Shown here: positions 3-21,000 of the stretch, piece by piece | Layout of the letters: every line of letters begins with the position of its first letter | Numbering within the stretch: position 1 is the first letter of the stretch | Assembly: GCA_038222225.1 (NCBI GenBank) | Contig: JBBRHV010000006.1 | Coordinates: 1,626 to 65,625 of the forward strand | Length of the DNA: 64,000 nucleotides | Source: Candidatus Omnitrophota bacterium | GTDB lineage: Bacteria > Omnitrophota > Gorgyraeia > Zapsychrales > JANLHA01 | Direction of reading: 5' to 3' | Notes under the pieces: generated by a model | Seen by the model: the letters and a program-made list of their open reading frames with translations, nothing else | Database searches by the model: none | Told to the model about the DNA's origin: nothing | Translations under genes and position numbers: made by a program

Positions 3-3000
3 TCTGATCAAAGGCCCAATTCTTCAGAGCCACTAGAAAACAATAAAGCGGTTGTTTCCAAGCTTCTGGCCGGGGTTGTGGTTCTGGTGAGCTTGGTATG
101 GCCGCTTGTTTTGTCCAAGGCCTTTGTATCAAAATATCTGGCGTTCACGCTTTGGGGCACATTGGGAGAAGGATATGTTTGGCAGCTCCTCACGTACAGT
201 TTTCTCCATACGAATCCTTTGCATTTGACCTTCAATGTGATCGCGTTTGTTTTCTTCGCGAATTTCATAGAGAGGGCAGTGGGGGTCAAAAGATTTTTGA
301 CTCTCTTTATCGGAGCAAGTGTTGCCGGAGCAGTCTTCCAGGTGCTGGCAATGGCCGCAAACAGTTTCACCTCGCCGGAATTAGCGGAGGCACTGGATAT
401 CACTCCTCTCATCGGACTCTCAGCAGTAGTAGCCGGGCTGATCGGAGCCTTCGGCGTTGTGCTGCGTGATCAGAAAGTGACATTCTTACTGTTGTTCATT
501 ATTCCGTTCCGCATCAAGGCGCAGCGGTTGGCGCAGATGTTGGTCACCGTCAGCATTGCGGCGATCATTTTCAATATAGTTCGCGGGGCCCAGGGCGGGA
601 TCGCCCACGGGGCGCACCTCGGCGGGCTTATTTTTGGTTGGGTTTATACGGAATATTTGCGGCGTGCAGGAAAGATCGATACGTTCATTATTGAAGAGGA
701 GAAACCCAAGGATCCTTCCGGAACCAACGCGGCGGTATTATCCAACTCAGATCCGGAAGGGGGAGTTGTTTCTTATCCGGCCCGTTCCAGCATCAGCGCT
801 GAAGAAAGGGAAGCAGCAAAACAGGGTACGGGCCCGGAAAATCTCAAGGGCTATGTCGTCAATTCACGGAAGATTCTGGGCGTTCCGGTTGAAGGTCTTG
901 AGATCAGTTATTCGGACCGCAGCGGACAAACAGTTGCTGAATATAAGCCGGGCCGTGTTGCCATTGATCTTTTGGGCCTTGGAGCCCGGGCGCCGCCGAT
1001 CGATCTCGAGCATTCTGCAAAATCCCGTCGCTTCCAGAGCATTATTCATGATGTTGTACGACAAATTATATTAGCTTCTCATTATTATGCCCTTTCAGAG
1101 AAAGATGTCCGTCAGGTTTCAGCCCGGCACTTTATCGGCCGGCAGCAAAAAGTTCAGAATTTTCTGGATCAGGAATTTAATCTTCGCGAATTCGGTCTGG
1201 TGTTTGATCCTGCCTATCTTGAGCTTTTAAGAAATTACCAGAGAATTGATCCTCAAATCGAAAGAATTAAAGAGCAGCTTGATCTCTTCAAGGGCGGGGC
1301 TGTGTCGTTTGAAGAGCTGTGTGAAGCTCTGGATGCGCGCGTTATTCTGAATGTGGCATCGCGTGCCTTATTTGAAGTGGGGAACAGTCCGTACCTGGTT
1401 AAAATTTACCGCGGCGGAACGCTGACGGCGAAGGCGTATGCCGCCGAAAAACAATTTTATAGAGAATATAACCCAACGGTCCAGCCGGAGCTGGTTTATT
1501 GTGATGACAATCTGCAGGCCTTGGTTGTGACGGATTTGAACCAGCTGGGATTGGTGCGCATGTTTGATTTTATTCAAGGGCCGTTCATTACGGAAGAATT
1601 GTTGGGTTGTTCGATTTCTTCCATGGCCCATGCCTTGGCGCAGCTGCATAGCAGCGCTGACGTGGCCTCGCAAACCGGTGAGCGGAAATTTGCTGAACTC
1701 AGGCATGAAGTGGACCGGGCGGTGGAGGTCTTAAGAGCGGCCGGGTTCCAAGGCCTTCCCGATGGAAAGAGCCTGGAGGATTTTCTTGCGCGATTCCAAG
1801 ATTCAGTAGTCGGAGAAAATGAACGATTGGTTCACGGCGATTATCTGATGTGGAATATTTTTGTTGACCCGGCAAGCGGAGAGGTGCGGGCCCTCATTGA
1901 CGGTGAGATGAGCGGTCTTGATTCTGCCGCTAAAGAGATGGCGAACACGATCCTGGGATTGATCGATGCCCGCAAGAATCATCCGTTCTTAATCAGTCAA
2001 ACTGCGGAGATGTTACGGTCGTTTTGGAGAGAATATATCCGGGAGACGAAAGACATTACCGGGCAGGAGATTTCTCCGGCGTTTGAGACTCGGGTCCATT
2101 TTTATTGCGCGGTCCAGTTGCTGATTGGCGCCAGAGTTGCGCATGAGAAATGGGCTAAATGGGCCCATTTCAGAATTGAGATGGCCAGGTTTTTCCTTAA
2201 TCAGGAAGCATTTTCATTGGAAGCTTTCATTGAGTTTTTGAATCATAATATTGGCAAACAACCGATCGGTTGGGTCGGGAATTTTGATGTTGCGACTCAG
2301 CACGGGCAGAGGCCGGGCTCGGGCGTTGAGATAATGATTGATGAAACAGGTTGGGCTGATTTCTTTGCCGAGGTTTGGGTTCCAGGAAACATCGGGGATC
2401 CGATTTTTGCATTGGGTATCGGAGCGGAATTACGTGTGACAAACAGAGACACCGGCGTTGTTTCGATTTGGAGGCCAGTGGAATTTTGTCATTTTGCGGG
2501 GAATAATTATCAATTTAGAGGAAGCGTGTTTTATCTCCAGGCGGGATCGTATGATGTGGAACCATCCTTCTCAGCGGATATGGGAGAAACGTGGTTTATT
2601 CCGCAACTCCCTTATGGCCCGTGTCATCTGACAGTGACAAAAGCATTGTCTGGGGAAGCGCCTTCAGAAAAGATAGTGAGTGTGGTCTTTTCTGACCTTC
2701 ACGGTGAGTTGAATGGTTTCCGTTCAGCGCTTGTAAAGCTCGGTATGATTTTACCGCAAAATAACCCGATGGAAGATATTTGGATTTCTCAAGATGTGAC
2801 GGTGGTTGTGGATGGAGATATCATGGATCGTGGTTTGCGACAGAAAGAGTTATACCACTATATCTGCCATCTCATGTTGACCGCCGAAGAAAGCCGTAAT
2901 CGGGTCATCTTTATCTTAGGAAATCATGAGCTGCTTCATCTTCAGGGGACTCCGGATGATTGGACAGCTCATGCGCTTACAGAAGTGATTAGAGAAGGTA

Positions 3001-6000
3001 TTCTTCGAGGAGATATTGTGGCAGCCGCGTATCTAGGTGGGCGTCTGATAGTTCATGCGGGAATTTTACCTTTTATTACCATGGATTTGATAAAGACATT
3101 ACGCCCAGGATTTTTGACTGTCGTTGCCCATCGGTCAGGAAAGTTCGTAAAGGATCTTACCGCGGTTGAAGTTGCCATCGAATTGAATAAAACACATAGC
3201 GTTCTTTCTGCTGACTCTATCGTGAATGAATTCAATCGGAGATTGCGGTTGGCGGTTGAGAAAGGCGATTATTCTGACGTTATTTTCCAGAGAGGGAACG
3301 CTCATTTTGGCGAGAACAAAAGGCCTGGAGAGTCGGGATATATACCCGGAGGCATATTCTGGGCAGACTATGAAAACGAATTGCGGCTGGTTGACCCGCG
3401 TGCGCTTATAGCGCAGATCGGAGGACATAGGGAGGGGAATGCGCTCCGTTGGACAAAGGGAGCCAGGGCTGTGAACGTCAATCTTTGTTATAAAGAGGGA
3501 TTTGGACGCAGCTCCGGAGTCGCTGTGTTTGATGGACAAAACTGGAAAGCTGTTTATTTTGATGGCCGGCCCATGCAAATTATTCCTGCTGTTATGGAGC
3601 GTGCTGTAAAACGACAGACAACAAATTCGGCAGCAGGTCAAGGCGGAACCAACGCGGCTGTTCTTGAGGGTGCGCCTTTTGAAGAACCGGAAACGGGTCG
3701 GATGAGCAGGCGAAGCATGCTGAAAATGCTGGCGCTGGCAGGAGCAAGCTTGCCGTTCATGACAACGACTGCTTTTGCTGATGAACCGACGGTTGATGAA
3801 GTTTTGACGGAACTTTTGAGCACTCAAACAGCGCATGGCCTCATTAAGAGTTTCAAGGGCACAACCGATACCTTCATGCAGAATCAGGCCGTGACCTATG
3901 ATCAGGCAGCCGCCGGGATCGCAGCTCTTGCGGCCGGAAGGACGGCGGAAGCGGTCAGGATTTTTAATTTCTTTTATAACCAGCATAATGGAGGAGATCC
4001 TGTCTGGAACGGGTTTGTGAATATGTATGATGCGACCCGCGGGGTCAAGGGCAACGAGCGCACGATCCACACAGGCCCGAACATCTGGATGGCGATGTTC
4101 AGCCTTCATCTTTATATGGCAAGCAGCGGTCAACAGGCCACGAAGGCCTTGACCCTTGCCAAAGCGCTCATGCAGTGGGCCAGGGGTTTGAATCATCGCG
4201 ATGGAGCGGTTGCCCTTGGACCGGTCCCCAATAATAATATTTTCTCAACAGAACATAACCTTGATTATTTCGCCTTCCTTAAAGGAATACAGTCGTTTTT
4301 GTCCGCGGCAGAAGCGGCGATCGTTCAAGCAGAAATGGACGGGGTTGGAACATGGTTAAAGACACATGCTTATGACCCGGCCAGAAGATTGTTCAAACGC
4401 GGAGCATATGAAAACCCGGTTGTCTATGCTACAGATACGTCAAGCTTTGCATTTTTATTGGGATCGCAGGTTCTGGAAGATTGGGGCATTGTTCGCTCAA
4501 CATTCATCGGCCAGTCCGATGCTGCCTATCGTGTCGGGACACGCGGTTTTGATGTGGCGAGTGTCGAGAACGCCAATTGGACCCCGCGTTCACGTTATGT
4601 CTTCAGAGAGTTTACTCTTCAGATGGCGGTAGGATTTTTGGTGATGGCTGATGATGAACACGATCGAGGCAATTTCACGCTGGAAAAAACGTATCGTGAT
4701 AAGGCTCAGCTCTATGCTTCTCAATCTGGCATAGATGGTGATTATCAATATTGTGAACAGACCGGGGTTCAGCTCTTTTATGATATTCCGAGCTGGAAAA
4801 CAATTAATGGTCAGTCGGCTTCGGTCATGGCCTGGAAGATATTTGCACTTCTCGGTTTCAACCCGTTTGGATTTGTTACAAAGGTGCGGCTGTCCGTCAG
4901 GCGTCTGGCGGCAACTGGAAATATGGAGTTGACTTTGCGCAAGGAAAGTATGGCGTCGCTCACTGCCGAGATTCTTTATTCAGATGACCTGGGAGATCAG
5001 AAAGAATGGAAGAGCGCCGGTTCAGTGGATTTGAGCGGCCTAAGGGCGGTTTGGGTCGATAACGGTTCTCAGACCACAACACATCCGTCGCAAAGCTCAA
5101 GGAGATTCTACCGAGTCTCGGCTGTAAATTCGTCTGTCCAGGGATTGGGCGCAGTCCATCAGGAGTCTAACGGTTTAGTGCCAGAGACGGTATTAATTGG
5201 GTCAAGCGCAGAGTATGGTCAAGAGTTCAAAGATGCGAATGCAGCAGTTTTGCAGGGGAAATTTGTTCAGACAGTGAAGACCAAAGGATCTGGGCTTAAT
5301 CGCTTTGACCTCGGGCGTTGGGGACGCGGGGCACTGCATTCAGTTCTTGCGCTAACACTGCTCACATCCGGTTGTGAGAAAAAAGAGGATACCCAGGGAG
5401 ATGCGTTGTCGGGAGTCGCGGTTCAGCCTGTTGATAGGAGCGCATTGGAGAACAGGATCAAGGAAGAGGTCCGGAAACTAGAGTATTCTGACAAGAACGC
5501 GGAGGATTTTGTAACGATGCTACGTCAATGGAAGAATGCTCAAGGCCAACCGGTTCTTACTGCGTGGGAGCAGAGCATTCTTAATGCCCGGAAACAATAT
5601 GAGCAGGGAGCCATGACAGCCGATCAGTTGGCCGGGATCGAAGCCGGGGTTGTTGGAGAAGTTGCGATGAGGATCGCTGAAGAATTTTCCGCGAATAATA
5701 ATGCTTTTGAATTGACCGATCTGATTGAAAAGAAACAGTCACAGTGTGTCAGCAGGTCAATGGCGGTAGCTATCGTCGGGAATGTACTTGGATTTAAGGT
5801 TGACTTTCTTGATGTTGATGCCAAGGAGATCAGGGCGATTGACGTTCCATTGGCGGAAAGAACTGTGGCGCATGCGGCCACCCTTGTACATTTGACCGGC
5901 GGGACCGTGATCATCGCCGATTCAGCGCTACGGTTTGTAAGCCGGCCGTTTTTAATGGAAGAAACCTACGCCGCAGTCGGGAACTATTGGGAACTTAAGA

Positions 6001-9000
6001 ACAGGAACGAACCGTTGTTGCTGCATGGACGAATCAGGAAGGCGTCTCTTTTAGCAGAGATTTATAACAATCGAGGCAACGCCTATGGAAGAGCCGGTCG
6101 TTATGAGGAAGCCTTCGCGCTGATGGCGAAAGCGATGGAAATCGATCCGGCATTGGCTGCAGCTTATTACAATCGGGGAGTTCAATATCAGGATCTAGGC
6201 CGGGTAGCCGAGGCAGTGGCGGACTATACAAAAGCGATCGAGCTTGATCCAAGAGATGCTGCTCCATATTGCAATCGGGGGAATATTTACAATACCGCAG
6301 GACGGGATGCTGAGGCTGTTGCTGATTATACGAAGGCCATTGAGCTTGATCCGCAATTAGCAGTGGTGTATTTCAATCGGGGAAATATTTATGGCAGATC
6401 AGATCGGCCAGAGGAGGCGATTGCGGATTTGACGAAAGTGATCGGGCTGAATCCGGAAGATGCCCAGGCTTATTACAGGCGGGCAGTGATTTACGGAAGA
6501 GTCGGTCAGTTAGAGAGCGCCAAAGCAGATCTCTTAAAGGTGCTGAATTTAAGTTCGGATGAAAAGCAAAAAGAACAGATCAAAGCTGCTGTTCGCAAGA
6601 TTGATGACATGCTTAAAGAAATGCCTAAGAAGAGCGCATCATCCAGCCACTCTGTTAAAAACGCTGAAACCAACGCAGCGATCCTTTATCCGTCACGCTT
6701 GGTGCCTGGACAAACGCCGGACTGGGCAATAAAATTCAGAACGACGTTGCCTAGCGATTTTGTTGAGGCGGCCGAGTCAGAGGATGGAGAGCAGGGCGTT
6801 GACAAGGTCATGTCGCTGGGGATTTGCCAGGATTCGCCGGACGTCTCGGAGCTTTTATCAAGATTTTATCGAGGATTGATGGAGAATAGCAACCCATCCG
6901 AGGTCCGCAGTCATTTGATTTATGACACGTGGTTAAAACTTAAAGAGAAGAAGATGGATGAATGGAACGCGACATTGGCGGTGTGGTTTACGTATGTGGT
7001 CTTTCAAAAAGCTTTAAGCATAGAAGCAAAACGATTAGCACAAAAGAATGCTCCGGCGCCTTCTGTTGAGGCATCCACAGAAGTCGCTACAGAACCATCT
7101 TCAAAAGGGCAGGAAGAAGGGGCGTCTGCCCGGGAAGATGAGCGTTACTTGGGGATTGTGATCGAGGTGGAAGGGTTTGGCCAGGTCACACTGACCGAAC
7201 GCATCGCCCGAAACAGCCGGACGCTTCTTTTTAAGACGAATCACCCTGGGCTTTTGATCAAACTTTTTGATCTGAACCACACCAGCATCGCCGGAGCCTT
7301 TGATCCGGTGATCGTCCAGAATTTTGAATTGGAACGCAATAATTTTGTCGAGGTCGCGAAGATCGATGAGCTGAGGCCGTATATTCCGCATTATTATCAG
7401 AGCGGCATCATCAAAGAGAGCAAGTACGCTTTCATCGCCATGGAATACATTGAAGGCACGGACTTAAAGAGCTGGCGGGAACAGGTTATTAACGGACGCA
7501 GTGAAAAGACTTTGACCGCCATTGAGTTCTGGCAGATGATGTCCCAGGCGATGAGCATTTTAAGAATATTCCACAAGTATGACCTGATCTTTTCTGATTA
7601 TAAACTTGAGAATATTCTAAGGCTGGCAGACGGACGTCTGAGGTTCGTTGATCTGGGAAGTGTTTTCCTTATTCATGGCTCGATCAAACCGCAGGATTTT
7701 CCGTATTCAGCAACAATGGAGGATTCGGAAGTTTTTGAAAACGCTGTCACTTTGAAGAACGGAAAGCCGCTGGCGAAAATTTCCGATATCTTCTGTGTGG
7801 GTGTGAGCCTGTTTGAATTCGCCACAGGCCAGGACCGTTTGACGCTGAGTCGTGAATATGCGGATATGCTTTTGACTCATTTACGCGTTATCAACCCGCG
7901 GATGTCTGAAACCCGGCTGTATTTTAATTATTATCCTCATCTTAAGGGAAAATTACCGACGCTGGAAGATCAGCTGCGTGAAGGATACGTCTTTTTTGCT
8001 GATTTTTGGCATTTGCTGCACGAAGTTCTTAAATATACCCAAGACGGTTATGAAGACATGGGACAGGCTGAAAAGGATGTTGTCCTGTTGTCGGCGGGGA
8101 TCGATTTTATCCGTAAGCAGCTTGGGCCTCTGGGCTGGGTGGCAGAGCCTGTTGCCCGGGCGACAGTTCTTAGACGCGTCCGGGTTGACAGTATTCATGA
8201 TCTGCTTTTGACGTTCCACAGCCCCTTGGGAGCGGAGGTCGTTGATGACCTTCGCCGTCACAACTGTTTTGTTGGTTGTGCTGAATCACAGTTCGGACAG
8301 CAGGGTTTCGTGGAACAGATGAGCACTTGGGACGTGCGTCTGAATTCGCACACTCAGCATTGGGCGGTCCAGGCGCCGGTCGCATTCAGGCATGATACAC
8401 AAGAAGCCGGTGCGTTGTTCTTGCAGCAGACCTACACGGATGAGGATGGCCATCGGTATTATCACATCACAAGCATGGAGGAGGCGGATGAATTGCCGAA
8501 CGGGGAAAAATTGACCCTGGCGCATTTGGAGGATGATCCGTACGCTTGGCTGGGAGCTCCATCGCAGGAAGATAATCAGGGTGGAAACTCTAAGAAAAAG
8601 CCTGTTCCAGCTCCTGAGAAAGAAAAGATAGTCATTGCGGGTAACGAAAGTGAGAAGCAGAAGAAAAAAACCAAAAGAAAATCCAGGAGGCAAAAGCTTC
8701 CAAAACCGACGACACGAGAGGAGGCCATCGCGTTGCTGATCCAAGCGGCCGGACGTGTTCCTTCGAACATTGCAAAAACCCCGCATCTTGTGGCCGACTT
8801 TTCACGCGGAGAGTTGACCGCAGCCAAGATCAAGAGCATGGCAAGGCAATGGGGGATTACGGGATATGATGTGCCGATCTCGAATTTGCCTTTTAGAGCG
8901 TATTCACGGAATGCTTCTTCAGACGAGCAAACAAATTCCTCTGTTCTGAACGAAGATATTTCAAAAACCGGACCTCCGCAGGGCTTTATTCATGTGGATG

Positions 9001-12000
9001 TCCATCCGGAAATTTGTTCGTTTAACGCCCTTGCTGAAGTTCAGCATCAATTTGGGGAGCTCACCACCATTGTTGTTGTTTATAGACGAGCCGCCGCTCT
9101 TCTTCAAAGGAAGCCGGTTTATGCCTCGCGTGAAAATGATATCATCATTCATTCCGACGGGATTATTTCTCAGGATCAGCTTATTTCGAAAATAAAAGGC
9201 CCTATCGCGCGCCTGTTGGTAACCGGCAATGAATTTGAAAGCTGTGTTGCCCGGGCTGTTTTTTCCATCAGAGAATTTATGCGGGATCAATATTCTGCCG
9301 GGTTTGTCTTGGATGTTCATTTTCCGATGGATTTGATCGTTGCCAATCGTCATGACTATCGCGATGGGGGATATCAAAAGATGATCGCGAATATAAAAGG
9401 CGGGGACTTTTTCTACAGCTATAAATTTCAAGCCCGTCGGATTGCCTATGACATCTATGATGGAACCGAACTGATCTGCCCTTGTGGGGAGGGAAGCGAA
9501 AATATTTCCAATCTTTATGTATGGCCATCTTTACAGAGCATGAAAGATGAATTAAGCCGAGGAACCGGCGGGACCAACGGGGCTGTTCTTGAATCAGGAG
9601 AGGGCGGCGCCTACAAGGAATTGATTTGTCGGTTTGACATGAAAGAAGATTATGAGGCGGATGATTGGAAGGAATCACGGGTTCTTAAGCGCGTGGCACT
9701 TATGAAACAGATCAGGTTGGGTTGGAAATATCCTCAGATGGGAGAACCGTCGGAACAATGGCTCAATGAGCTGAGAGAACTCGTTCTTCATCGTCTTTGG
9801 ACAAAGCTTCAAAAAGCACATCGTGGAGACATGTTTTTCCCTCAAGACATGGTTTCTCTCAATCGGTCGCTGAATCAGCCGTTTGTTTTTATCGTCGATG
9901 AACTTTTAAAGAACGCCCTTGATGCCCAGGCCTTGGCAGGGCAAAGCGGAAATGTCCATCTTGCGAGATCGTTGCAAGGCGGAACATTCGTGATGGCGGT
10001 TTCTGATAACGGAATCGGCGTCCGTCGCCCATTCTTAGGCTCAGAGCAGCTGGCTTGTATTGAGTCTTTGGCAGATCAGCAGAAGAGACGTAATACTCGT
10101 TTGGAAGCAAGTGATGGGGCTGGATTGATCTGGGTTCAGTATCTGGTCGCCATGCGGGGAGGTAAGCTTGAAGTCGAATCTCCCGGTCGCAATGAAGCCA
10201 GGACTACGGTTGTTGTGTCCTTGCCGGCGGATGCGTTAACGGTCATTGACAAGACGGGCTTAGGTTCTCAGACAAATGCTGCAGTCCTTCAAAAGAGAGA
10301 AGATGTCGCTACGCGGTTTATTTTTAGGTTAGCTGATCATTATGGTCTTTCTTCCACTTGTGATCCGCAGGAGATCCTTCAGGTTCTTCGTGCCAGGGGA
10401 ATCTTGAGTTCAGGGGAAGAAAGGGCGTTTGTCAGATATAGAAAAATTTTAAAACAGATGTATCCGGAGCTGAGCCTTGGGCAGGCTGAAGCACGCTGGA
10501 CGGAGGGCTACACATTTTTCGGGAATAATTCTTCTGAGGATTGGGAGCTTTCCGGACTGACGGAAGATTTTACGGTCATGGTTAAGAAACACATCGAAGG
10601 GATCCGGGCCGTTGAACACACCGATCATCCTGCGGATCAGGGCTGGTGGAAGGAAGATGGGCTGAAAATAAGAGTGATCCGGATTACGGATAGTCTTGAT
10701 TTAAAGGCGGCGTTACCGAACGAAAAAACAGAAAACCTGCCGCTGTCATCTGATGATGAAAACGGTTCACTGCACCTCTTTGAGTTTTTGTTCAAGAAGA
10801 TCTTTATTGAGCCAAAATATTTTGGCCTGGTAGCTTTCAAAGAAGGAAGGCCTGTTGGTGTATATGGGGTTTTTGTTTTAAATGATTGGAGAACGATCTC
10901 TGGGCGCGGATTATATGTCGTTCCATGGGAAAGGTATAAGAAAACAAATATCGGGTGGATGCTGGTCTCAAGGATGGCGGAATTGTTCGCGCTCAATGGC
11001 TATAAGTATCTTTATATCCCTGTGGCCAACCGTCCGTCGGCGCAGAAATTTTTTGAGAACGTGTCGGACAATACTGGACGCTTCCAGTTTTTCACAGAAA
11101 CAAAACGGAACGATGACGGAAAAATTCAAAAGGTTGCTGTGAAGCTGCAGGAAAGGTTCACTCCGGTTCAATGGGACATTGATCTTAAGCGTCAGATCGG
11201 CCAAGTCAACAGCGCGGTATTAAATACGAGCCTGTTGCAGCAGGTCCAAAATATGGAGGCAATGTTTAAAGCCTATGAATCGATTCTTAGTGACCATGGC
11301 CGACAGATACACGAGAGAGTTCGAGTGGTTTTAAGAGCAGCTTCTCAAGGCGTGATGAATGCAGAGCAGCAAAAAGAAGTTCGGGCGCTCGTGGCGTTGA
11401 TGCCTGATCCGCAGCATATTGATATTGAATCCGGCGGAGAAAAGAATTGGATCCGTTGGTTTGATTTAAGCCCGGAAAGACTGGGCGCATCTTTAGATCA
11501 AAGCATTGCCGATGGATGTGCGTGGCCGTGCCTGCATTGTGCGGCGTACAATGGCCATGCCAAAACAGTGATGGAGCCGCTTCCTGTTGTGATCGCAAAA
11601 ATTTTAAGCAGAACACAAACGGATATTATTTATCCATTCCAGTTCGATCTGATTTCTTGGCGGGATCTTTTCTTTGGAGTCGGCATTTCGGGATTAGCAG
11701 AGTTTATATCACGGTATAACCCGCAATATCAATTACGGTCATTGCCGACACGAGGTTGGGATAGCGATGATGCCTTTGTTCAGAACGAAGCCCTGCATCT
11801 TGCGCAGCTTAAAATCGCTAGTGGTATGTTCATTCTTTCATTCCATCTGTGCCATCAGCGGTATGACATCTTGCCGGCTATTGCGCAGGCGGTCAGGAAC
11901 GGAGACCGTGCAGAACTCGATGCACTGATCGATGTTTATGCAGCACGTTATGCGAATGTGATCGCTACGTTAAGTCCTGCGCTTGATCGGGTCAGCGTAT

Positions 12001-15000
12001 TTTTACCCGGAGATGTATACGCTCCCGTCTTTGAAGAGGCGACGATCCGGGCATTGAAAAAAGTGTTGAGCATCTTAAACGCTTCGCATGAAGAGATCAA
12101 GCCGCTTGTTGGTGAGATCAGTCATGGGGTCCTTGGGATCCGGGATATGAGATTTTTAAACATCGGCGGAAGGCAGATTTCGTTTATTTCTCGAACGATC
12201 CAACACGACGGCCGCGGGCGTGACTTTTTGGGACGATTGTGCATGGCTGAAAGCGGGGATTTGAACGGCAGGAAGGCGAATATGAATTTGCTTCGCATGG
12301 TCAAAGAACATGGCCGTCCGTATCCGGTTTCTGTCCTGTTTGCCTCTGGACGAACGATTGTCCAAACGCCGCAAGTCAACAGCGCGGTGCTTTTGACCGA
12401 ACCGCTGAGAAAAATGTTCCGCGCATTGAAACCGTGGCTGGTTATCGGCGCCGTTGCTGCCTGGGTGGGTTTTGAAAGAATGAATGCGAATCTCTTTTCT
12501 GGCCCTGAAGGGGGCGCGCATGAGAAATGGATCTTTCTCGACCTTGTTTTAGCCGCCGGTGTTATTGAAGAAATTCAATACAGGTTTGGCGTGTACAGGC
12601 ATGTCTTGAGGCCTTATTTCGGCGTTGTGCTGTCAGTCATCATCAGTTCTTTAGTTTTTGTGGCGGTCCATCTGATCTTTGCGGATGGGACCTTGATCGG
12701 TTTAATATATGTCCTGTTGTTTGGTGTAATTTCTGCCTTGATTTATGAAACCAGCGGCAAGCTGCGCTACGCTATTCTTCTGCACATGATCTCGAACTTG
12801 ATTTGGATCGGCATGAGCGCCGGTCCGTTTGCATATTTTATATTCACGGTCTCGCTTATGGCGCTGATGAAATTAAGCTTTGTTCTATTTATCTTCTATC
12901 ATACGGTCATCGCTGGCGTTAATGAGAGAGGAATCAAGGCCTTTGAACGTTTTGGAAAAACTGATTCGATTGATGAATGGTTAGGTCAAAAAGTTATCAG
13001 ACCGGCGGTGGCTGTGATTAAAAGCCGATGGGCAAAACTTGGCATGAATAAAATGTGGCGAGCAAAAAGCCCGGATGGAAAAGAACATCGCCGCATATAT
13101 GCTTTGGCATTCACAATCAGTGGATTGATCCTGACCTTGCAGTTTGCCGGAGACAGGATGTTCAGATTGTTCTATCCGGTCTCGCCAAGACCTTTGATCA
13201 CTCAAGAAGAGATGCGACAGAACATTCAGCGGGAGAGGGATAAGTTTGAAGCAGCAAAACGTGCCGCCCTCGCACAGACGCCAGGACTCACCACCAATGA
13301 TATTTTTGGTGTGATGTATTCTTACAAAGCGGATCTTTCATTGATCCGGGTTGTTTTATTCCATGACGGTCGCGCATACAGCGTGGAGGTGACATCGTCA
13401 GGTGAGACAATTGTCGATCCGGTAGCGTTATCATGCTACGAGGGCATTCTTACGCTGTTATTTTCCGACGGGCATATGGACAGACATCGTGAACTTCCTT
13501 TAAACGAACGGACTTGGAATGAAGTTGAAGCTTGGAAAAATAGATTGCCTCAAAAACCTGCACCTAAAGTACGGTCGAAACAGGGCGCGCAAAATTCATA
13601 TCATAAATTCAATACAGCGAGTTTGTACAAAGGGGTCAACAGCGCGGTGTTGTTGGGTTACTCGGATAAAGAAGCGTGGAACAAAGAGTCCGGGTTTTTG
13701 CTGGATACATTTTTTACATTTGAGCAGTATGTCGCGGCGGCTTTATATGATCCGGCCTGGGGATTTTATGGCAGTGGGAAGATCAAACTAGGGTTTGATT
13801 TCGGAACCATGCCGATCGCGCTGTCGCCGTTTTTCGGAGAGAAGGTCGCTGAGCGTGTGTACGAGATGTATATCGGCATGCTGAAAGCCGGTACCATCAG
13901 GCCGGATGAGCCGTTTTACATGATCGAGTTTGGGGCGGGAACCGGCGTGTTGGCAAGGGACGTACTGGCATTCTTTAGAGAACAAGCTAAACGCGGACGG
14001 GTTTATAAACGATTCTATGACAATTTGCATTATGTGATCAGCGACCGATCTAGCCCGCTGCTGGAAAAACAAAAGCAGAAGAATGCGGAGTTCTTGGAGG
14101 AAGGCAAGATCCAGTTTGTGATCGGCGATGCTCAAGAGCTTGAAACATTCTTGGAGAAAGAGCGTCCGATCAAGGGAGTTGTATTCTCCAATGAGCTTTT
14201 GGATGCCTTCCCGTCCCATAAAGTTTACATGGATGAACAGGGAGTGGCACATGCCATGGTCTCGATACCGGCTCTTGTCGATCAGCACAGTCCTGATCTC
14301 AGGCCTGGCAGCAGAGGCCGCCTATCGTCAACGATCAGCTTGTTGGCGCAAGTCGGAAAGGTGCTTAAGGCCCACGGGCTTTCGCTTGAAACATTAACTC
14401 AAAAAAGCCGTGAGTTCGCAGGGCGGTCGAATGTAGTCAAACAGATGGTGGATGATGGGGCCGTTGTTTTAAGTCGGGAGGATTTCTGCCGTATCCAGGA
14501 AATTTTCTCCGGTGAGAAAGTCAGTATGTATCGCGAGCTTATCCACAGGGTTATGGCGTTCTCTGAGATGACGGTTCCCGCGGCGCTGGTGCCCGGTTTA
14601 AAGGAATATTTAGATTTCCACAAAGATGAAATGAGGACGGCCCTTCAGGGAGAGTCAGGATGCGCAGTTGTCTCTTCCGGGTGGCTTTCGTTTGCAAAGC
14701 ATGTTTCCGGTTTGATCGATCAGGGATATGTCTTTACGATCGATTATGGAGAGACTACGGCGACATTGTTGAGCGCCAGGCGCAGAGAGAATTTTCCGAT
14801 TTCGATCTATCATCGACGTTTGGGAAGAGAGCGCAATCCTTATCTTCACCCTGGTGATGTGGACATATCGGTTGCGCCGGATTTCACGGTCTTTGCCCAG
14901 GCGGGGCTTGTTCATGGCTTGGTTCCGGTTTATCACGGGGAGCTCCGGTTCTTGCAGGCAGATTCAACCGAAAGGATTGACTCCGCGCAAACCGCTTCAC

Positions 15001-18000
15001 GGGTTAAGCGGCTGTTTACCCAGATGGCGATCGAGGCCAATATTGAAATTAATGCTCTTCGAGCACATGGATTTTCGGGTGATCAATCTCAGAGCATCGC
15101 TGCTGCGATGGAGCGTTATTTTAAAGAGGGTCGCCAGCCTGCGCCGGGAGAGCTTGACGCTAAAGCTCAGGCGGAATTTGACAGCCTTCTTCAATTCGGA
15201 CGTAACGATGCCGATGACAAATATCCTATCTGGGTTGAGCGTTTCTTGCATTCATCCGGGCATAAGATCTTGATCCAGCAAAAGGCGGGCACAGATCCAC
15301 ATTATTCGTTTGGCCAGCCGATCTTGCCGCTGTTTCAGGTGAAGCCCAAGACATCTTTGGCAGTTTCGAATGATTTTATCGGAACAAATTCATCCGTGAT
15401 CGACGATCAAAAGGTTGTTGTTGATATCCGCAGCCTGGCTGAAGATGCCTACGATGAAGCGTTTGCCACACGCCATTCGAATTATAGACGTCATGACTCC
15501 CATCGAGTCCATCATTGCGAGGTCAACACCAATATTTTGCAGGGATTCCTTCAGCTAAAAGGATACAGGGCTATTCAAGTTTTTCATACACCAAAAGGTG
15601 AACCGCAATATTTTGTTATGTTTATGGTTAACGGTGAGGTTTGGGTTGCTGAGCCAACTTGGCAGCTCATGATTCCTGAAGAGAATCGCACTGATGATCT
15701 TCCGCATTGTCTGGTTTTCAAAGAAGCGGATCTTGAGAAAATCATGCAACAATTCGGTATTGTTGAACATTGCCGCGTAAGTTGGCGCAAATCGGTGAGT
15801 GAGAATCGAGACAAACTATTTGAGACCGGGACAAGGGATTCTCTTGGGACGAACGGATCGGTTTTAAATTCAGGCATAACAGGTGTTAAAAAAGGAATAG
15901 GGTATGTGAGTTCGCTCTGGCAAAGGATGCGGCATGGGCGCGCAGACTCTTTTGATCTTCATCAGATGGAGGCTGCCTTCGGATTGCATGTTTTGGGACG
16001 GTTCCTTCGCCGTCGCCCAACGGTTCTGGTGATTCGCGGGAAGGGGCCGTTAAGCGGGCTGCAGGTTCTGGCAGAGGGCTTGGCCGCTCAAAAGTATAAT
16101 GTTGTTCTGTTCAATTATGATTACAGATTGCCGATCAGACAACTAAGCGCTTCGCTGATCGCAGCCTGGAGAGTATTCCAGAAGGCCCATCCACGGCGGA
16201 CGGAGTTTGGGGTGGTGGCGTATTCTTACGGGACAACAGTTCTTCGTTTGGCTGTGGTGAAATCGTTAGATGAGGTCTTCAGAGAGGGGCACATCATTGA
16301 GCTGGCACCGCTCTTGGGCGGATCTAGGAGCGCCTTGAGCGCATCGACGCCGGAGGGGATTGCCTTGGCGCGGTCTTCCGGCAAAGCGGATATGATCCAG
16401 ATAGGGAAGGCCTTGGATCCGAATGGTGAGTTCCAGGCGGAGTTGTTTAATGAAATCAATATTGGATTATATGAGGACCGGTTCAGCCGTGCTTCGCGTT
16501 TTGTGATTATCGCCGAAGGAGATGAACTTGCGCCGCGCCTGGACCGCCGGCCGGATCATTTCACGCGAAGGTATCAGGAGAATCTCGGAGAACATGTCGA
16601 AGTCCGTATTAAGCGGCAGCCGCATGATGCTTTGCCCTCAGAGCCTGCGGCGGTTACAAAAGTGATCGAGCGGTTGAACTCTCGACTTAGACCCGGTGTC
16701 GATACCGCTGAGAGAAAAGCAGACGGCCGTCAAGGGAGAGACATCAATAGCGCGGTGTTGTCCTCTGGGGCTGAGCCGGATTTTTCTTTCGACAAAACAA
16801 TTTCGCCCGATGTTCATCGTGCCAAGATTCGTTATGTAAGCCAAAAGAGAATCGCTCAGGATATGTCACGCACTAGCCATGACCGGGTTCGGGCTAAGGA
16901 AGCCTATTTGCTTGCAGTTCGCGATACGGCGATCAATTTAGCCCGGGCTAGGGATGAGCGGGTCGCTGCTGTACTGCGGAAAATATGTGATACGATCGTG
17001 GTTCGTGCCGGCCCTATGAAATATTTATTGGGGGCCTACCGTTCAAAAGAATTGTTCCTTGATGAATCTCTGCTTTCTGATCCTCAACAGTATTATGAAT
17101 TAATTCTCACATTATTGTATGAAGCGCGAGCGATTGCTTACCCGGCAGGTTTTAATGCGGAAAATGAGGGGTTTGCCCAAGATTGTTTGGTCAACGGGCT
17201 TATTCCAGAACGGATCCATCCGCGCACCGCCAAAGAGCGTCAAAAGATCGTGGAGGCGCTCAAGCTTTTACCAAAAATTCAATCCCCGGTGAATTATCTT
17301 TTAGTCGTGCCGATGTATAAGGAAATGTTCCGTTTGAGTCCTGAGGGCGAAGACGCGTTGCGGCGCAAGGTTTTGGCCATGGCTGTTCTGCATCGGTTGA
17401 ATCCGAATTTGAACGGCCGCATGCTTCTGGTTGATGACGGAACTCCATCCCTGGCATCTGAGGCGTGTGCCCGTGAGATTTGGCGTCAGATCCAAAAGGA
17501 ATTCCAGGCTCGCGGCGAGGTACTGGATCCGGAAGCCGTTACGTTTGCCCATGTCTCCGTTGAGGAAAAGAAAAGCAAGAAGAGCAGAAAAGGATGGGCG
17601 GTTCTGCGGGGGATGCGTTTGGCGCTGGAGCAGGGATGGGCAGATTATATTGGTTATACCGATACGGATATTTCAACAAATCTGCTTCAGATGCCGTTTA
17701 TTTTATGTCCCCTGATCGAGCGCACGGCTGACGTTGCGATCGGATCCCGTTGGGCCAGCGGCGGCAAACAGGAAGGTGTTTCGTTTAGACGGATGGTTTC
17801 AAGTAAAGTCTTTAATATGGCGGTTCATATGTTTCTGCCGGTTTTGTGGCGGATCAGGGATACTCAGCGGGCGTTTAAATTGTTTAACCGGTCAGTATTA
17901 AGAACCATTTTGCCGTATGCCAAGGAACCCGGCTTAGCGATTGATACAGAGCTATTAACACTTGTCCGTATCGCCGGACGGAAAATCATTGAAGTTCCTA

Positions 18001-21000
18001 TTGCATGGATTGATTCTGCCGAGGCAAGTACGATCGATCTGGGGAAGTCTGCCAAAGAAATGCTTTTGGCAATTATGCTGCAGTCGCGCCATATGTTCGA
18101 TCTCAGGCTGATTTTGAATCTTCGGCTTGCAGAGAGGCTGAACCCTGAAAGGAAAGGAACAGATCTCGAGGTTAATAGCGCTGTTCTGGATGCAGAGAGT
18201 TTAAGTTGGAGTGGCTTCATTGAATTTGAACATGCCGGAATGAAACTGCTGGCTATTCAACGCAAGACAGAAGGGCTTGCCGGACGCAGCCTGGCCCGCG
18301 CGAGTATCGAAATTTATCAGCTGATCAGAGGTGTTTCTGAGCCTGCGCTGACCGGATTTGTTGACGTCTGGTTCCGGGAAGACCGAACAGCGGCGGTCCA
18401 TAAAGAATTTTCTTGGAATGATTATTATGCCTTAGGTGTCTTGGGACATGCCCATGGGCCGTTGAAATTAGGTTATTCTTTAGACGGGTATGATACTGTC
18501 TGGAGCTATGGCGAACGCCGGTTTCTGGTTGGGGAAGACCATCCGGCCTTGTGGGTCCATGCGCAATCACGCAATCAGGGGTTAGGGAAGGTCCTGTTTG
18601 GGGCCGCAGCCGAACTGGCCCGCTTGCGCAATTGTCATCTGCTTCGTGTTGAAGAATGCCAGACAGGCGGGCGCAGTCTGTATAGACAGTTTGTTCCGGC
18701 GGATCAACAGCAAAATATTGACGGATCTTCGGTCGTGCTTCAGCTGCAAGGCCGTGATGCACAAAAGACGGGTGAATCTCAAAAGGAAACGAATGCGTCG
18801 ATTTCTGGCGTTGAGGCGGAGCATAACAGTTCGGCTGGGATGCAGGAAAGGTTGGCAAGACTTTGTGAGGAGGCCCTTCATCAAACAGTTTTCCCTGTTC
18901 GAGGCCAAAGCACGGAGGATGTGAAGCGGCTTCTTATCGAGGCGGATAAACAGACGCATAGTATTTTCAGATTCCATTTGGCAAGACTGGTTCTGGCAGA
19001 ATTAGGCCGTTGTTGTTCAGGGGCTAAAAAAGGATGGATCTTCGGTGATGTCGGGGAAGGAACACTTGATCGGATCGGTCCGTTGGGCGATATTGATCTC
19101 ATTATCGGAGTCGCGACCGAAGAAGATAAAGTTGGCGCGGCCCAAAATTTAGCGAGCATTAACGCGTATGTGACGTACTGGTTAAATAAGCTGCAGCATA
19201 CCAAAATAGAGGAGCTCATTGAAACAAGGAATGCGAAAAGAATTTTAACATTGGCAGAGATTGAGGGTAACCCGTTCTATATCCACAATGTCGACAGTCC
19301 TGCTTCGCTTCTTTTTGATGCCGAAACAATTTCAGATGTTCGACGCGCAAACGGATCTGAGTCTGCCGAGGCCAACAGCGCGATCCTGAATCGAGAGGAC
19401 GCGCTGGCCCGGCTTCGCAATCCGGATTATGTTGAGCCGCAAGAATTGACCAGCACCGATCTTTTGGGGACGTGTGAAAAAATCACGCGCTGCACAAATA
19501 CAAGAGTTCAATGCTCATTTGTTCCTCATCAGCAGCATGCTCCCGGAGGTGTCTATGTTGCGGCAGGCGTTGCGCAGACAGCAAGGATGACGGCAACGGG
19601 GCAGGTGCATACACAGACTCAATTTGAAATCACGATCAGGGCAGGTCAAAGAGAGGACATGAAACATGTTTTGCGCATGATCTTAGAGAAGCTGGTGCGT
19701 TTGAGGGATAAGGTGGCTCCGGAAGCATTGGACGCCTTTGATGTTCTGGCGCAAAGAAAGGCCGCCGACATTTCTCTTCATGCCGCAGAGGGAGAATCGG
19801 CGCTTAGGTGGTCACATATGATCGGGCTTAAGGTTGAGGCGGAGAAGCATTTTAATCATGTGCCGGTGAGCATTCAGGCAGATGTGATCTTGACTACGAT
19901 GCCCCGGAGGGAGGCGGCACAGCGTTTGGTTGTTAAATTAAGTCAGGAACAACGGTTTATGATATTGGCTCCGACCGGGTTAAGCCCGCGGGAGATTGTG
20001 GATCAGCTTCTTGCGAAAGAAACCGTTGAGGAGGCAATTAAAAATATCTTGAGGAAAGGGATCCTTCGCGGGATTCATGCCCATGATGATATCCGAAAAG
20101 CGTTTCAGGGCAGCGGGATTTTATGTGAAGCGCTCGTGTCGGATGCCAGGGTCAACCGGATCCATATTTTCAGCGTGCCCAAAAGGATCACGGTTTTAAA
20201 AAGTTATCACTCAACGCCGGAAGATGTGTGGGACGCTTTGCGCCGGGAGAAGGGGCTTAATAATCAGCTTCAGGCGGATTTTGCTGAAAGCGTTCATTCT
20301 CAGATTGCCGCTGATATAGTCATGCGGCGTTTAGGTTTGTGGCGTCTAAAAGAAAAGAAAGACGGGTCTCTGTTTAGAGTCTTAACCCGTTTATTCCGGT
20401 TGAGGCGTTCGTCTTACGGTTTGGCCCAGGCCAGGGAAGACGTGGCACACATCAATTCCCAAATGGCAGGATCTGTTGCAGACTCCCTGACGTGGGTTTC
20501 GGCACCAACATATTTCTTGAGTCTTTCTGATGAGGAACGCAAGGGCCTTGAGGAGGAGATCAAATTTCAACTTCGAAAATTTGGGCCGAAGGCTGTTGAC
20601 CAGGAAGAATTTCAATTGAAATTGAGAGAGTCGATCGCGCAGCGTTGGAGAATCCAGAAGGGGATGACGCCGGAAGAAGTTTTTGACCAATGCGCGCTGT
20701 ATTGGATCGTGGAAGTTGCAAATAACTTCATTCCGAAATTCAATGCCATGAGGTCACGCTCAGAGCGGTTTGAATTTTTGAAGGCCCAGCTTCCGCAGTG
20801 GTATCCGGCGTTGGTAGAGACGTTAGATTCTCTTCAGAGTTTATTAAATGACGGAAGTACATCTTTTGATGTTCGACAGCAGATAGGAACACTGGGCATC
20901 TCAGTTGCGGAACAGGACCTTTTATCAAAAGCATTTTTAGATGAATTTGGGTTTGTGCTGCTTTTGGGACAGTCCGCTCAGGGAACAAAGTCAGATTTAT

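Follow-up and report, generated by a model that had tools for sequence, protein, structure and literature searches.

Recurrent spacer peptides and internal export signals in a giant Omnitrophota gene point to a putative cellular polyprotein

In this study, we analysed a 64,000-nt stretch of DNA (the window) from a Candidatus Omnitrophota bacterium (assembly GCA_038222225.1, contig JBBRHV010000006.1), which carries a giant open reading frame (ORF) on the forward strand. In the translation of the window, the frame is open from nt 78 to nt 56891 and encodes 18,937 amino acids (aa), and the chain is divided by a recurrent spacer heptapeptide with the consensus [G/E/Q]-[T/A/V/I]-N-[S/A]-[A/S]-V-L. 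The spacer is under selection as a peptide, it is placed at the boundaries of protein-sized units, and export and membrane signals are found preferentially after it. Lineage-specific equivalents of the spacer exist in other long proteins, and protease units bounded by them are also found there. We consider it reasonably probable that the giant ORF is a cellular polyprotein which would be cut at lineage-specific spacers, and that the cutting would free N-terminal twin-arginine translocation (Tat), lipoprotein and Sec signals.

The spacer heptapeptide and the units it bounds

With a strict regular expression, 44 spacers were detected in the giant ORF compared with 0.7 in shuffled sequences, and with a position-specific scoring matrix (PSSM) at a threshold of >8 bits, 52 were detected where 2.4 were expected; the earlier inspection of the window which we followed up here (the original prediction) had arrived at the same number, 52 motifs. 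The spacer belongs to the coding frame, in which 44 copies occur, compared with 0-2 in each of the other five frames, and its density per 10,000 aa is 23.2 in the giant ORF and 0.33 in the ORFs of 80 other Omnitrophota loci, which corresponds to a 70-fold difference. The codons of the spacer vary synonymously (Asn is encoded by AAC and AAT, Ser by codons of either family, and every codon of Ala, Val and Leu is used) and match the background usage of the gene, so that it is the peptide, rather than the DNA or RNA, on which selection acts. For the window, a motif at the nucleic-acid level was rejected on the same ground. In the flanks of the spacers, K, P, S, N and D are enriched and hydrophobic residues are depleted, as expected of exposed linkers.

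The units between the spacers, about 51 in number, have a median length of 311 aa and correspond to whole proteins. None of the 50 spacers falls inside a Pfam domain across 19 domain matches, where 6.6 would be expected (P ~0.001). The Pfam content of the giant ORF amounts to about 17 distinct families, including Rhomboid, APH, Metallophos, Pkinase, HATPase_c (two copies), Rce1-like CPBP, Methyltransf_28, several GNAT, PTS-HPr, PALP, alanine dehydrogenase, helix-turn-helix (HTH) and SEC-C, and about 45 hydrophobic segments are present, with transmembrane (TM) helices scattered along the chain. For example, the unit at aa 1197-1718 aligns along its length with the free-standing protein P0002 (512 aa), and the N-terminal signals of both stand at an equal relative place. 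When 1.84 billion representatives were scanned in full with HMMER for matches to aa 2948-4105, a radical S-adenosylmethionine (SAM)-like unit was recovered both as a free-standing protein (380-440 aa) and inside long proteins. The free-standing homologues compared here (380-420 aa) start 3-56 aa before the MFTAY anchor, the local spacer of the long proteins ends 13-45 aa before the same anchor, and the next spacer follows the C-terminal TLDELDP anchor after 2-9 aa. The units have their boundaries where free-standing homologues begin and end, and by this comparison each segment of the ORF appears to be a complete, independent protein.

The spacer itself can be present or absent at one and the same place. 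Two paralogous units, at aa 7617-7928 (22926-23861) and aa 18670-18937 (56085-56888), share 46% identity, and in the former the spacer GGVNAAVL stands between FEGKLS and DRMGKTS, where it forms a clean indel of 6 residues, whereas the other copy is without a spacer. From this indel, it follows that spacers can be gained or lost within a linker. Close pairs of spacers, 19 and 21 aa apart, were also observed at 31242-31313 (GTNAAVL...ETNAAVL) and 40209-40286 (GANASVL...DTNAALL), and similar pairs occur in the long proteins P0025 (aa 940/950 and 4008/4017) and P0015 (aa 2034/2050); if cut, such pairs would bound 'empty' units of about 15 aa.

Two further observations concern individual units. A tandem duplication of about 60 aa (QQVADNVRRMEFEE[R/C]KKELLASWRMM...AMAARISKDR) lies at 41109-41470 in a long coiled-coil-like unit. 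A SEC-C zinc-binding motif (PF02810, 1e-9), which is normally located at the extreme C-terminus of SecA, was found at 52599-52685 (aa 17508-17536), 6 aa after the weak spacer variant ATSAAVL.

Sorting signals after the spacers

The original prediction had claimed that a lipoprotein-type signal stands directly after one of the linker motifs, at 5236-5385, and that a module with tetratricopeptide repeats (TPR) follows it. The motif KDANAAVL begins at aa 1717 (nt 5229) and is followed by QGKFVQTVKTKGSGLNRFDLGRWGRGALHSVLALTLLTSGCEKKED at aa 1726-1771 (nt 5253-5390, QGKFVQ...EKKED); the peptide is thus present, and only its coordinates were a few bases off at each end. Its h-region GALHSVLALTLLTSG (aa 1751-1765) is uncharged and about 14-15 residues long, within the 7-22 residues taken for such signals, and is preceded by an n-region with six K/R residues. 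It ends in LTSGC with small residues at -1 and -2, where the lipobox Cys is Cys1766 (codon nt 5373-5375), and EKKED stands after the Cys. Among the 139 Cys of the giant ORF, two match the core of PROSITE PS51257, of which one is Cys1766 and the other is part of a radical-SAM Cys cluster, without a hydrophobic core; the G+LPP lipoprotein core has a single match in 18,937 aa, again at Cys1766. As encoded, the lipobox is internal and not N-terminal, and neither a start codon nor a Shine-Dalgarno sequence was found upstream of the signal. Pattern tests for a lipoprotein signal pass at the core, and the claimed signal after the linker motif was confirmed in this form, with a lipobox that is non-canonical. 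The TPR module was likewise recovered, with matches to Pfam TPR families at aa 1992-2172, and no homologues of the unit were found outside the TPR region. The unit at aa 1726-2198 is a predicted TPR lipoprotein.

The same prediction had counted this signal as the second sorting signal behind a motif, and a twin-arginine signal does stand behind the preceding spacer (aa 1190-1196). It consists of SRRSMLK, then MLALAGASLPFMTTT and then AFA; position 5 of the motif is M instead of F, and the parts agree with the requirements of a Tat signal. In total, three Tat-like signals were found, one in the window and two in the long protein P0003, and all of them lie 8-16 aa after a spacer. At eight more spacers of the window, a signal peptide or the first TM helix of a membrane unit begins 0-25 aa after the spacer (Table 1). 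For a statistical comparison, hydrophobic segments were grouped into clusters, and the first segment of a cluster was scored if it starts at most 45 aa after a spacer. This was the case for 11 of 34 clusters compared with 4.1 expected (P ~0.001), and with a stricter definition of the segment for 6 of 12 clusters compared with 1.4 expected (P ~0.001), both obtained with hydrophobicity-based segment detectors, which are crude. The enrichment of sorting signals after motifs, which the original prediction had suggested examining, is therefore present, though it depends on how the signal is defined. With this enrichment and the pattern-based lipobox tests, neither of the two results that had been named as contrary to the original prediction was obtained. 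Internal translation starts were rejected as an explanation of these signals; Met after spacers occurs 18 times compared with 17.4 expected, and no Shine-Dalgarno sequences precede the signals.

The Tat and lipobox segments also provide information on the topology of the chain. The hydrophobic segments at aa 1217-1234 (Tat) and aa 1751-1766 (lipobox) are consecutive, with no TM segment between them. The numbers of K/R in the N and C flanks are 4 and 0 for the Tat h-region and 4 and 2 for the lipobox h-region, and with such K/R-rich N flanks, the positive-inside rule places both segments with the N-terminal side in the cytoplasm (N-in). An N-in/N-in pair fits two independent signal peptides and would be impossible for successive helices of one uncut chain. 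The N-in charge bias was seen in 7 of 10 unit-first segments. In addition, what a Tat signal exports is by implication a folded domain, and such export would be incompatible with 17,000 residues still being attached.

We propose that at least 50 protein-sized units would be translated as one chain, joined by polar linkers that bear the spacers, and that an endoprotease would cut at or beside each spacer, so that every unit would gain its own N-terminus. In each lineage, the spacer and the specificity of the presumed cognate protease would have co-evolved. After release, the units would fold and be sorted individually: about one fifth of them would be directed to the membrane or periplasm by Tat, Sec/lipoprotein or signal-anchor segments, and the kinases, acetyltransferases, alanine dehydrogenase, pyridoxal phosphate (PLP) enzyme, HPr and HTH units would stay cytoplasmic. 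For the unit at aa 1726-2198, Sec export, lipidation at Cys1766 by Lgt and trimming by signal peptidase II would lead to a TPR lipoprotein.

Table 1 Features of the giant ORF in the window. Positions are nucleotides of the window; the spacer lists give the first base of the Asn codon, and the numbered spacers are the 44 strict motifs plus NAALL (40272).
Feature	Position	Strand	Remarks
Giant ORF	3..56891	+	at least 18,937 aa; GTG start listed at nt 78; about 50 spacers, giving about 51 units
Rhomboid intramembrane serine protease domain	171..662	+	aa 32-195; PF01694 2.4e-23; HxxxN, GxS and H motifs present
Preceding spacer G-T-N-A-A-V-L	3645..3665	+	aa 1190-1196; PSSM 23.3 bits
Tat-signal unit	3666..5231	+	aa 1197-1718; domain related to secreted proteins P0001 and P0002
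Tat-type signal RMSRRSMLKMLALAGASLPFMTTTAFA	3699..3779	+	aa 1208-1234; starts 11 aa after spacer, SRR core 13 aa after
Spacer D-A-N-A-A-V-L	5232..5252	+	aa 1719-1725; PSSM 17.3 bits
Unit with lipobox	5253..6671	+	473 aa (aa 1726-2198); signal followed by an orphan domain (about 220 aa) and TPR repeats
n-region QGKFVQTVKTKGSGLNRFDLGRWGR	5253..5327	+	aa 1726-1750; 3 K, 3 R, 1 D
h-region and lipobox GALHSVLALTLLTSG-C	5328..5375	+	aa 1751-1766; PS51257 and G+LPP cores
TPR repeat block	6051..6593	+	aa 1992-2172; Pfam TPR_1 9e-39 and related families; PDB consensus TPR proteins
Next spacer E-T-N-A-A-I-L	6666..6686	+	aa 2197-2203; closes the unit 27 aa after last TPR
First TM of CPBP-protease unit	12432..12473	+	13 aa after spacer at aa 4101
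CPBP/Rce1-like intramembrane protease domain	12528..12803	+	aa 4151-4242; PF02517 5.5e-13; NCBIfam MrtJ/MrtS-like weak
Signal or TM segment	23913..23987	+	17 aa after spacer at aa 7924; N flank with 7 K/R
First TM of about 8-TM unit	28851..28910	+	20 aa after spacer at aa 9567
Single TM	30474..30545	+	15 aa after spacer at aa 10113; charge bias N-out, C-in
TM hairpin	40338..40430	+	17 aa after spacer at aa 13399
TM	48909..48962	+	directly after spacer at aa 16273
Sec-type signal peptide MLKAFRAVVSFCIVMAGSMFIFSKTVRA	50220..50270	+	11 aa after variant spacer NTGVL at aa 16699
First TM of about 7-TM unit	55119..55181	+	15 aa after spacer at aa 18328
Spacers 1-15	726, 3651, 5238, 6672, 8934, 9576, 10275, 11208, 12378, 13638, 15387, 15852, 16746, 18174, 19374	+	
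Spacers 16-30	22158, 22353, 22911, 23250, 23847, 27081, 27684, 28776, 30414, 31242, 31299, 32349, 32955, 34110, 35493	+	
Spacers 31-45	36771, 37272, 38808, 39201, 40209, 40272, 43386, 44598, 45375, 46188, 48894, 49707, 52386, 55059, 56070	+	
Weaker spacer variants	5127, 18792, 42240, 46962, 50172, 52599, 53892, 54573	+	

Related long proteins, candidate proteases and genomic context

Several more distant long proteins have their own recurrent short motif at similar spacing and at equivalent boundaries. The spacer is S-S-S-P-[V/I] in P0003 (17 copies; 5,552 aa, with the whole 16.7-kb contig as the ORF), [A/S]-S-S-P-[V/I/L] in P0025 (18 copies; 4,224 aa), D-R-T-S-P-[V/M] in P0018 (9 copies; 2,849 aa), (S/R)-A-A-P-A-G-R in P0009 and P0014, and R-R-S-P-S-G in P0013 (5 copies). 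The proteins P0003, P0006, P0009, P0013, P0014 and P0015 carry the NCBI label Candidatus Omnitrophica or Omnitrophota. In P0003, two spacers are followed by Tat signals after 8 and 16 aa (TRRHFLKF... and TRRSFLT...), and the N-terminus of an alanine dehydrogenase comes directly after another. In P0025, a complete sigma-70 factor (regions 2, 3 and 4) occupies aa 3643-3866 and starts 5 aa after a spacer, within an ORF that is a 4,224-aa fragment. Since a sigma factor must bind RNA polymerase, this arrangement is hard to reconcile with its staying in a 4,000-aa chain.

Particularly, the ORF of P0018 (L082, 1190-9739) is complete and its genomic surroundings are normal, with moeA, tatA and tatC next to it. 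It starts with an N-terminal signal peptide, its second unit is a Trypsin_2 domain bounded by two RTSPM spacers, and a radical-SAM-like unit and HEAT repeats are also present; the codons of its spacers vary with the amino acids kept. P0018 looks like a complete 'mini' version of the architecture and a tractable test case. Another Trypsin_2 unit was found in P0012, a Peptidase_M28 unit in P0025, and the sequence GDSGSP in a region of P0015 without a Pfam match. As a separate observation, 9 of the 17 SSPV/SSPI spacers of P0003 (L081, 1-16658, 40% GC) are encoded by an identical GC-rich 12-mer, AGCTCGCCGGTG, which could reflect a recent spread of cassettes or a nucleotide-level constraint in that lineage.

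In the giant ORF of the window, the only recognisable peptidases are a rhomboid and a CPBP/Rce1-like domain (Table 1), and matches of the former to the NCBIfam rhombosortase and GlpG models are below the cutoff. Both are intramembrane proteases and are unlikely to be well placed for cutting soluble linkers. Substrates of rhomboids reportedly share a motif with a small P1 residue and hydrophobic P4 and P2' residues, as Strisovsky et al. are said to have found in 2009. A cut of the spacer as N-S-A|V-L would give A/S at P1, L at P2' and T/V/A/I at P4, and a rhomboid unit is in the same ORF. However, the spacers of the window are located in polar soluble linkers and not in or next to TM helices, the active site of rhomboids faces the periplasmic side, and the SSSPV and RTSPV spacers of other lineages accompany trypsin-like units and not rhomboids. 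The rhomboid is a lead only, and the gene for the processing enzyme may lie in the part of the ORF 5' of the window or at another place in the genome. Self-cleavage by Asn cyclisation was set aside, as the spacers of other lineages have no Asn. We also noted an HExxH motif at 48189-48203 (aa 16038-16042; FGTCAHEWTHIF...DEFLADLGAEMF) in a unit without a Pfam match, for which a unit carrying FGTMAHEIAHNY...FFAEL in P0025 is a weak homologue (E 4e-5). The unit may be a zincin-like peptidase common to giants with different spacers; its AlphaFold single-sequence model was unusable, with a pLDDT (predicted local distance difference test score) of 37.

Regarding the genomic context, the giant-ORF frame has no stop codon at nt 3-77, so that the gene very probably continues 5' beyond the window; the protein need not begin with the rhomboid domain, which would then be an internal unit. 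On the 3' side, ordinary bacterial genes follow, the first of which encodes an HMGL-like aldolase with 85% identity to one Candidatus Omnitrophota metagenome-assembled genome and 71-77% to dozens more, so that the identities to about 60 such loci span 71-85%. Neither the giant ORF nor the spacer was found upstream of this shared gene in any of 80 syntenic Omnitrophota loci. Close relatives of the giant-ORF regions were almost absent among 5.8 billion proteins; a homologue search with the region around the lipobox returned two weak matches only, and one with the duplicated C-terminal unit returned none. The exact MnmA protein was absent from the protein collection. In a sequence search of the PDB with two 5,000-aa blocks of the giant ORF, only TPR proteins and one glycosyltransferase were obtained. 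Antisense to the giant gene, minus-strand ORFs of 150-350 aa occur at 3135-4196, 28440-29078 and 48030-48734, which are probably not genes but shadow ORFs opposite a long frame without stops.

Competing explanations and comparison with known systems

Several results weigh against a polyprotein that is cut at its spacers. The cutting itself, the bond that would be cut and the enzyme responsible are what we infer from sequence. Among the 18,937 aa, we identified no processing protease, and a trypsin-like unit was not found in the window by the GxSGxP signature, a small hidden Markov model or phmmer. The lipobox signal deviates from the standard in several respects. The classical pattern [LVI][ASTVI][GAS]C does not match at Cys1766, where Thr stands at -3; the Cys is residue 41 and the last K/R residue 25 after NAAVL, compared with a standard range of 15-35 for the Cys and K/R within the first 7-14 residues; and if the cut is directly after the spacer, the n-region is 25 aa long, about 10 aa over the standard rules. 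A second lipobox after any spacer was not found in the related long proteins, so that the lipobox is a single case. When every uncharged hydrophobic stretch was included (loose definition), no enrichment after spacers was obtained (14 compared with 12 expected), and pooled over the other long proteins, TM segments after spacers were not significant (4 compared with 4.0). Since the enrichment is seen with the first segments of clusters and not with the loose definition, it is specific to the places where membrane-targeted units begin. Finally, about 10 other long matches have no recognisable spacer, and the architecture is accordingly not universal; some of these matches may not be from Omnitrophota or may be without the shared architecture.

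The giant ORF might also encode a single, uncut polytopic membrane protein, in which the spacer would serve as a hinge, docking or modification site and the signals would be internal TM or signal-anchor helices. This matches the reading in the literature and the whole-chain topology obtained there with DeepTMHMM (Nielsen and Lui 2026). TM helices are frequent along the ORF, and those at aa 1217 and 1751 would formally bring the chain back to the cytoplasm; the lack of an identified processing protease in the window also agrees with an uncut chain. However, the required alternation is contradicted by the N-in bias of both helices, and the folded-domain export implied by the Tat signal could not take place while 17,000 residues are attached. 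Because of a single TM at aa 10133, the downstream PLP enzyme, the nicotinamide adenine dinucleotide (NAD)-dependent alanine dehydrogenase and the HTH units would lie on the wrong side of the membrane, so that cytoplasmic enzymes would come after an odd number of helices, and the sigma factor inside P0025 also speaks against an uncut chain. Moreover, a hinge would need neither an invariant Asn nor a different strict motif in each lineage, and the units start and end exactly where free-standing homologues do. We therefore regard an uncut chain as unlikely.

Two other mechanisms were weighed, both of which we hold to have little probability. In one of them, the spacer would be a nascent-peptide signal at which the ribosome skips a bond, or releases the product and resumes, in a manner like that of viral 2A peptides. 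Selection on the peptide and not on DNA would be expected here as well, most spacers elsewhere (SSSPV, RTSPV, AAPAGR and RRSPSG) contain Pro, which is typical of arrest and 2A sequences, and no processing protease was identified in the window. The spacer of the window, however, is without Pro and has about 7 conserved residues compared with the about 18 that 2A needs, the spacer-bounded trypsin-like units in P0018 and P0012 point to proteolysis, and, to our knowledge, no 2A-type mechanism on bacterial ribosomes is known, which makes co-translational separation very unlikely. In the other, the spacer would be a footprint of in-frame recombination or cassette insertion with no role in the protein, and the lipobox would be a chance resemblance. 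For such a footprint speak the behaviour of the spacer as a portable cassette (the 6-aa indel between paralogues), the tandem spacers 19-21 aa apart and the shared 12-mer of the SSPV spacers in L081; the position of the lipobox alone is not significant either, as one core match has a chance of about 12% to lie within 45 aa of a spacer. Against it, the codons are scrambled with the amino acids kept both in the window and in L082, so that selection acts on the translated peptide, and a DNA site gives no reason why export signals should be enriched after spacers. A footprint of this kind is, in our estimation, highly improbable.

In Omnitrophota, giant ORFs are common, with lengths of 10,000-147,000 aa, and they have been described previously (Seymour et al. 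2023, PMC10066038; West-Roberts et al. 2023, bioRxiv 10.1101/2023.11.21.568195; Nielsen and Lui 2026, bioRxiv 10.64898/2026.06.07.730766). The last of these studies defines a class of 'multi-enzyme metabolic cluster', which fits the present ORF, reads the topology on whole chains and never uses the words cleavage and motif; in a survey of huge proteins, unknown proteases and motifs were given as the obstacle. The features of Omnitrophota multi-enzyme giant ORFs are all found here, namely a length of at least 10,000 aa, many Pfam families, no dominating repeat, TM helices and an Omnitrophota genome. In the literature that we searched, in which most subscription journals were outside the coverage, there was no description of the recurrent spacer, of its lineage variants or of export signals after them, and nothing relevant was found in the literature on bacterial or prokaryotic polyproteins.

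The spacer predicts about 50 junctions in the giant gene, and analogous junctions elsewhere with other spacers, which makes the question of cleavage testable. If this prediction is right, it would change genome annotation and proteome counts, the reading of whole-chain topology and the view of bacterial gene expression strategies, and new pairs of protease and site could be used as tools. It is, we believe, an evenly balanced possibility that the Omnitrophota 'multi-enzyme' giant genes are substitutes for operons, in which dozens of unrelated proteins, among them enzymes, regulators, membrane and secreted proteins and even a sigma factor, would be made in one chain, released by a cognate protease at lineage-specific spacers and routed by the signals thus exposed. 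In that case, a cellular organism would for the first time be seen to express polyproteins on the scale of a proteome, and exact predicted cleavage coordinates would become available for hundreds of giant ORFs.

Compared with known systems, the giant ORF has both common and distinct features. With the known Omnitrophota giants, it shares the phylum, a length of more than 10,000 aa, unrelated Pfam domains (HATPase_c, GNAT, methyltransferases, radical-SAM-like units and kinases) and scattered TM helices, but in the published studies the product is taken for a single membrane protein, or cleavage is no more than a speculation. Like the polyproteins of viruses (flaviviruses, picornaviruses and nidoviruses), it would yield many proteins from one ORF, with the mature products predicted here, and has a recurrent short junction motif; the trypsin-fold protease unit found in related Omnitrophota ORFs is one of those that the motif bounds. 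Some flavivirus products are sent across the membrane by signal sequences that follow junctions inside the chain, and the same would hold here. In contrast to the viral systems, the gene is on a cellular chromosome, it comprises at least 50 units including ordinary metabolic enzymes, its junction motif is unlike any viral site, and no processing protease was identified in the part of the ORF that lies in the window, where the processing is putative. Bacterial lipoprotein precursors (processed by Lgt, LspA and Lnt; PS51257) have the same positively charged n-region, uncharged hydrophobic h-region (about 14 aa), pair of small residues at -2 and -1 and, at +1, Cys, whereas the signal in the window is 1,750 residues inside an ORF, without a start codon or Shine-Dalgarno sequence, and has Thr at -3 and an n-region about 10 aa over the usual length. 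A parallel in cassette organisation is seen in multi-cassette precursors, such as the cyanobactin PatE-type RiPPs (ribosomally synthesized and post-translationally modified peptides), the gingipain polyproteins of Porphyromonas, the nematode polyprotein allergens and polyubiquitin, in which repeated short recognition sequences flank the cassettes and a dedicated protease acts on them. These precursors, however, consist of copies of one peptide or of a few domains belonging to one system, whereas the ORF of the window joins dozens of unrelated full-size proteins with different destinations.

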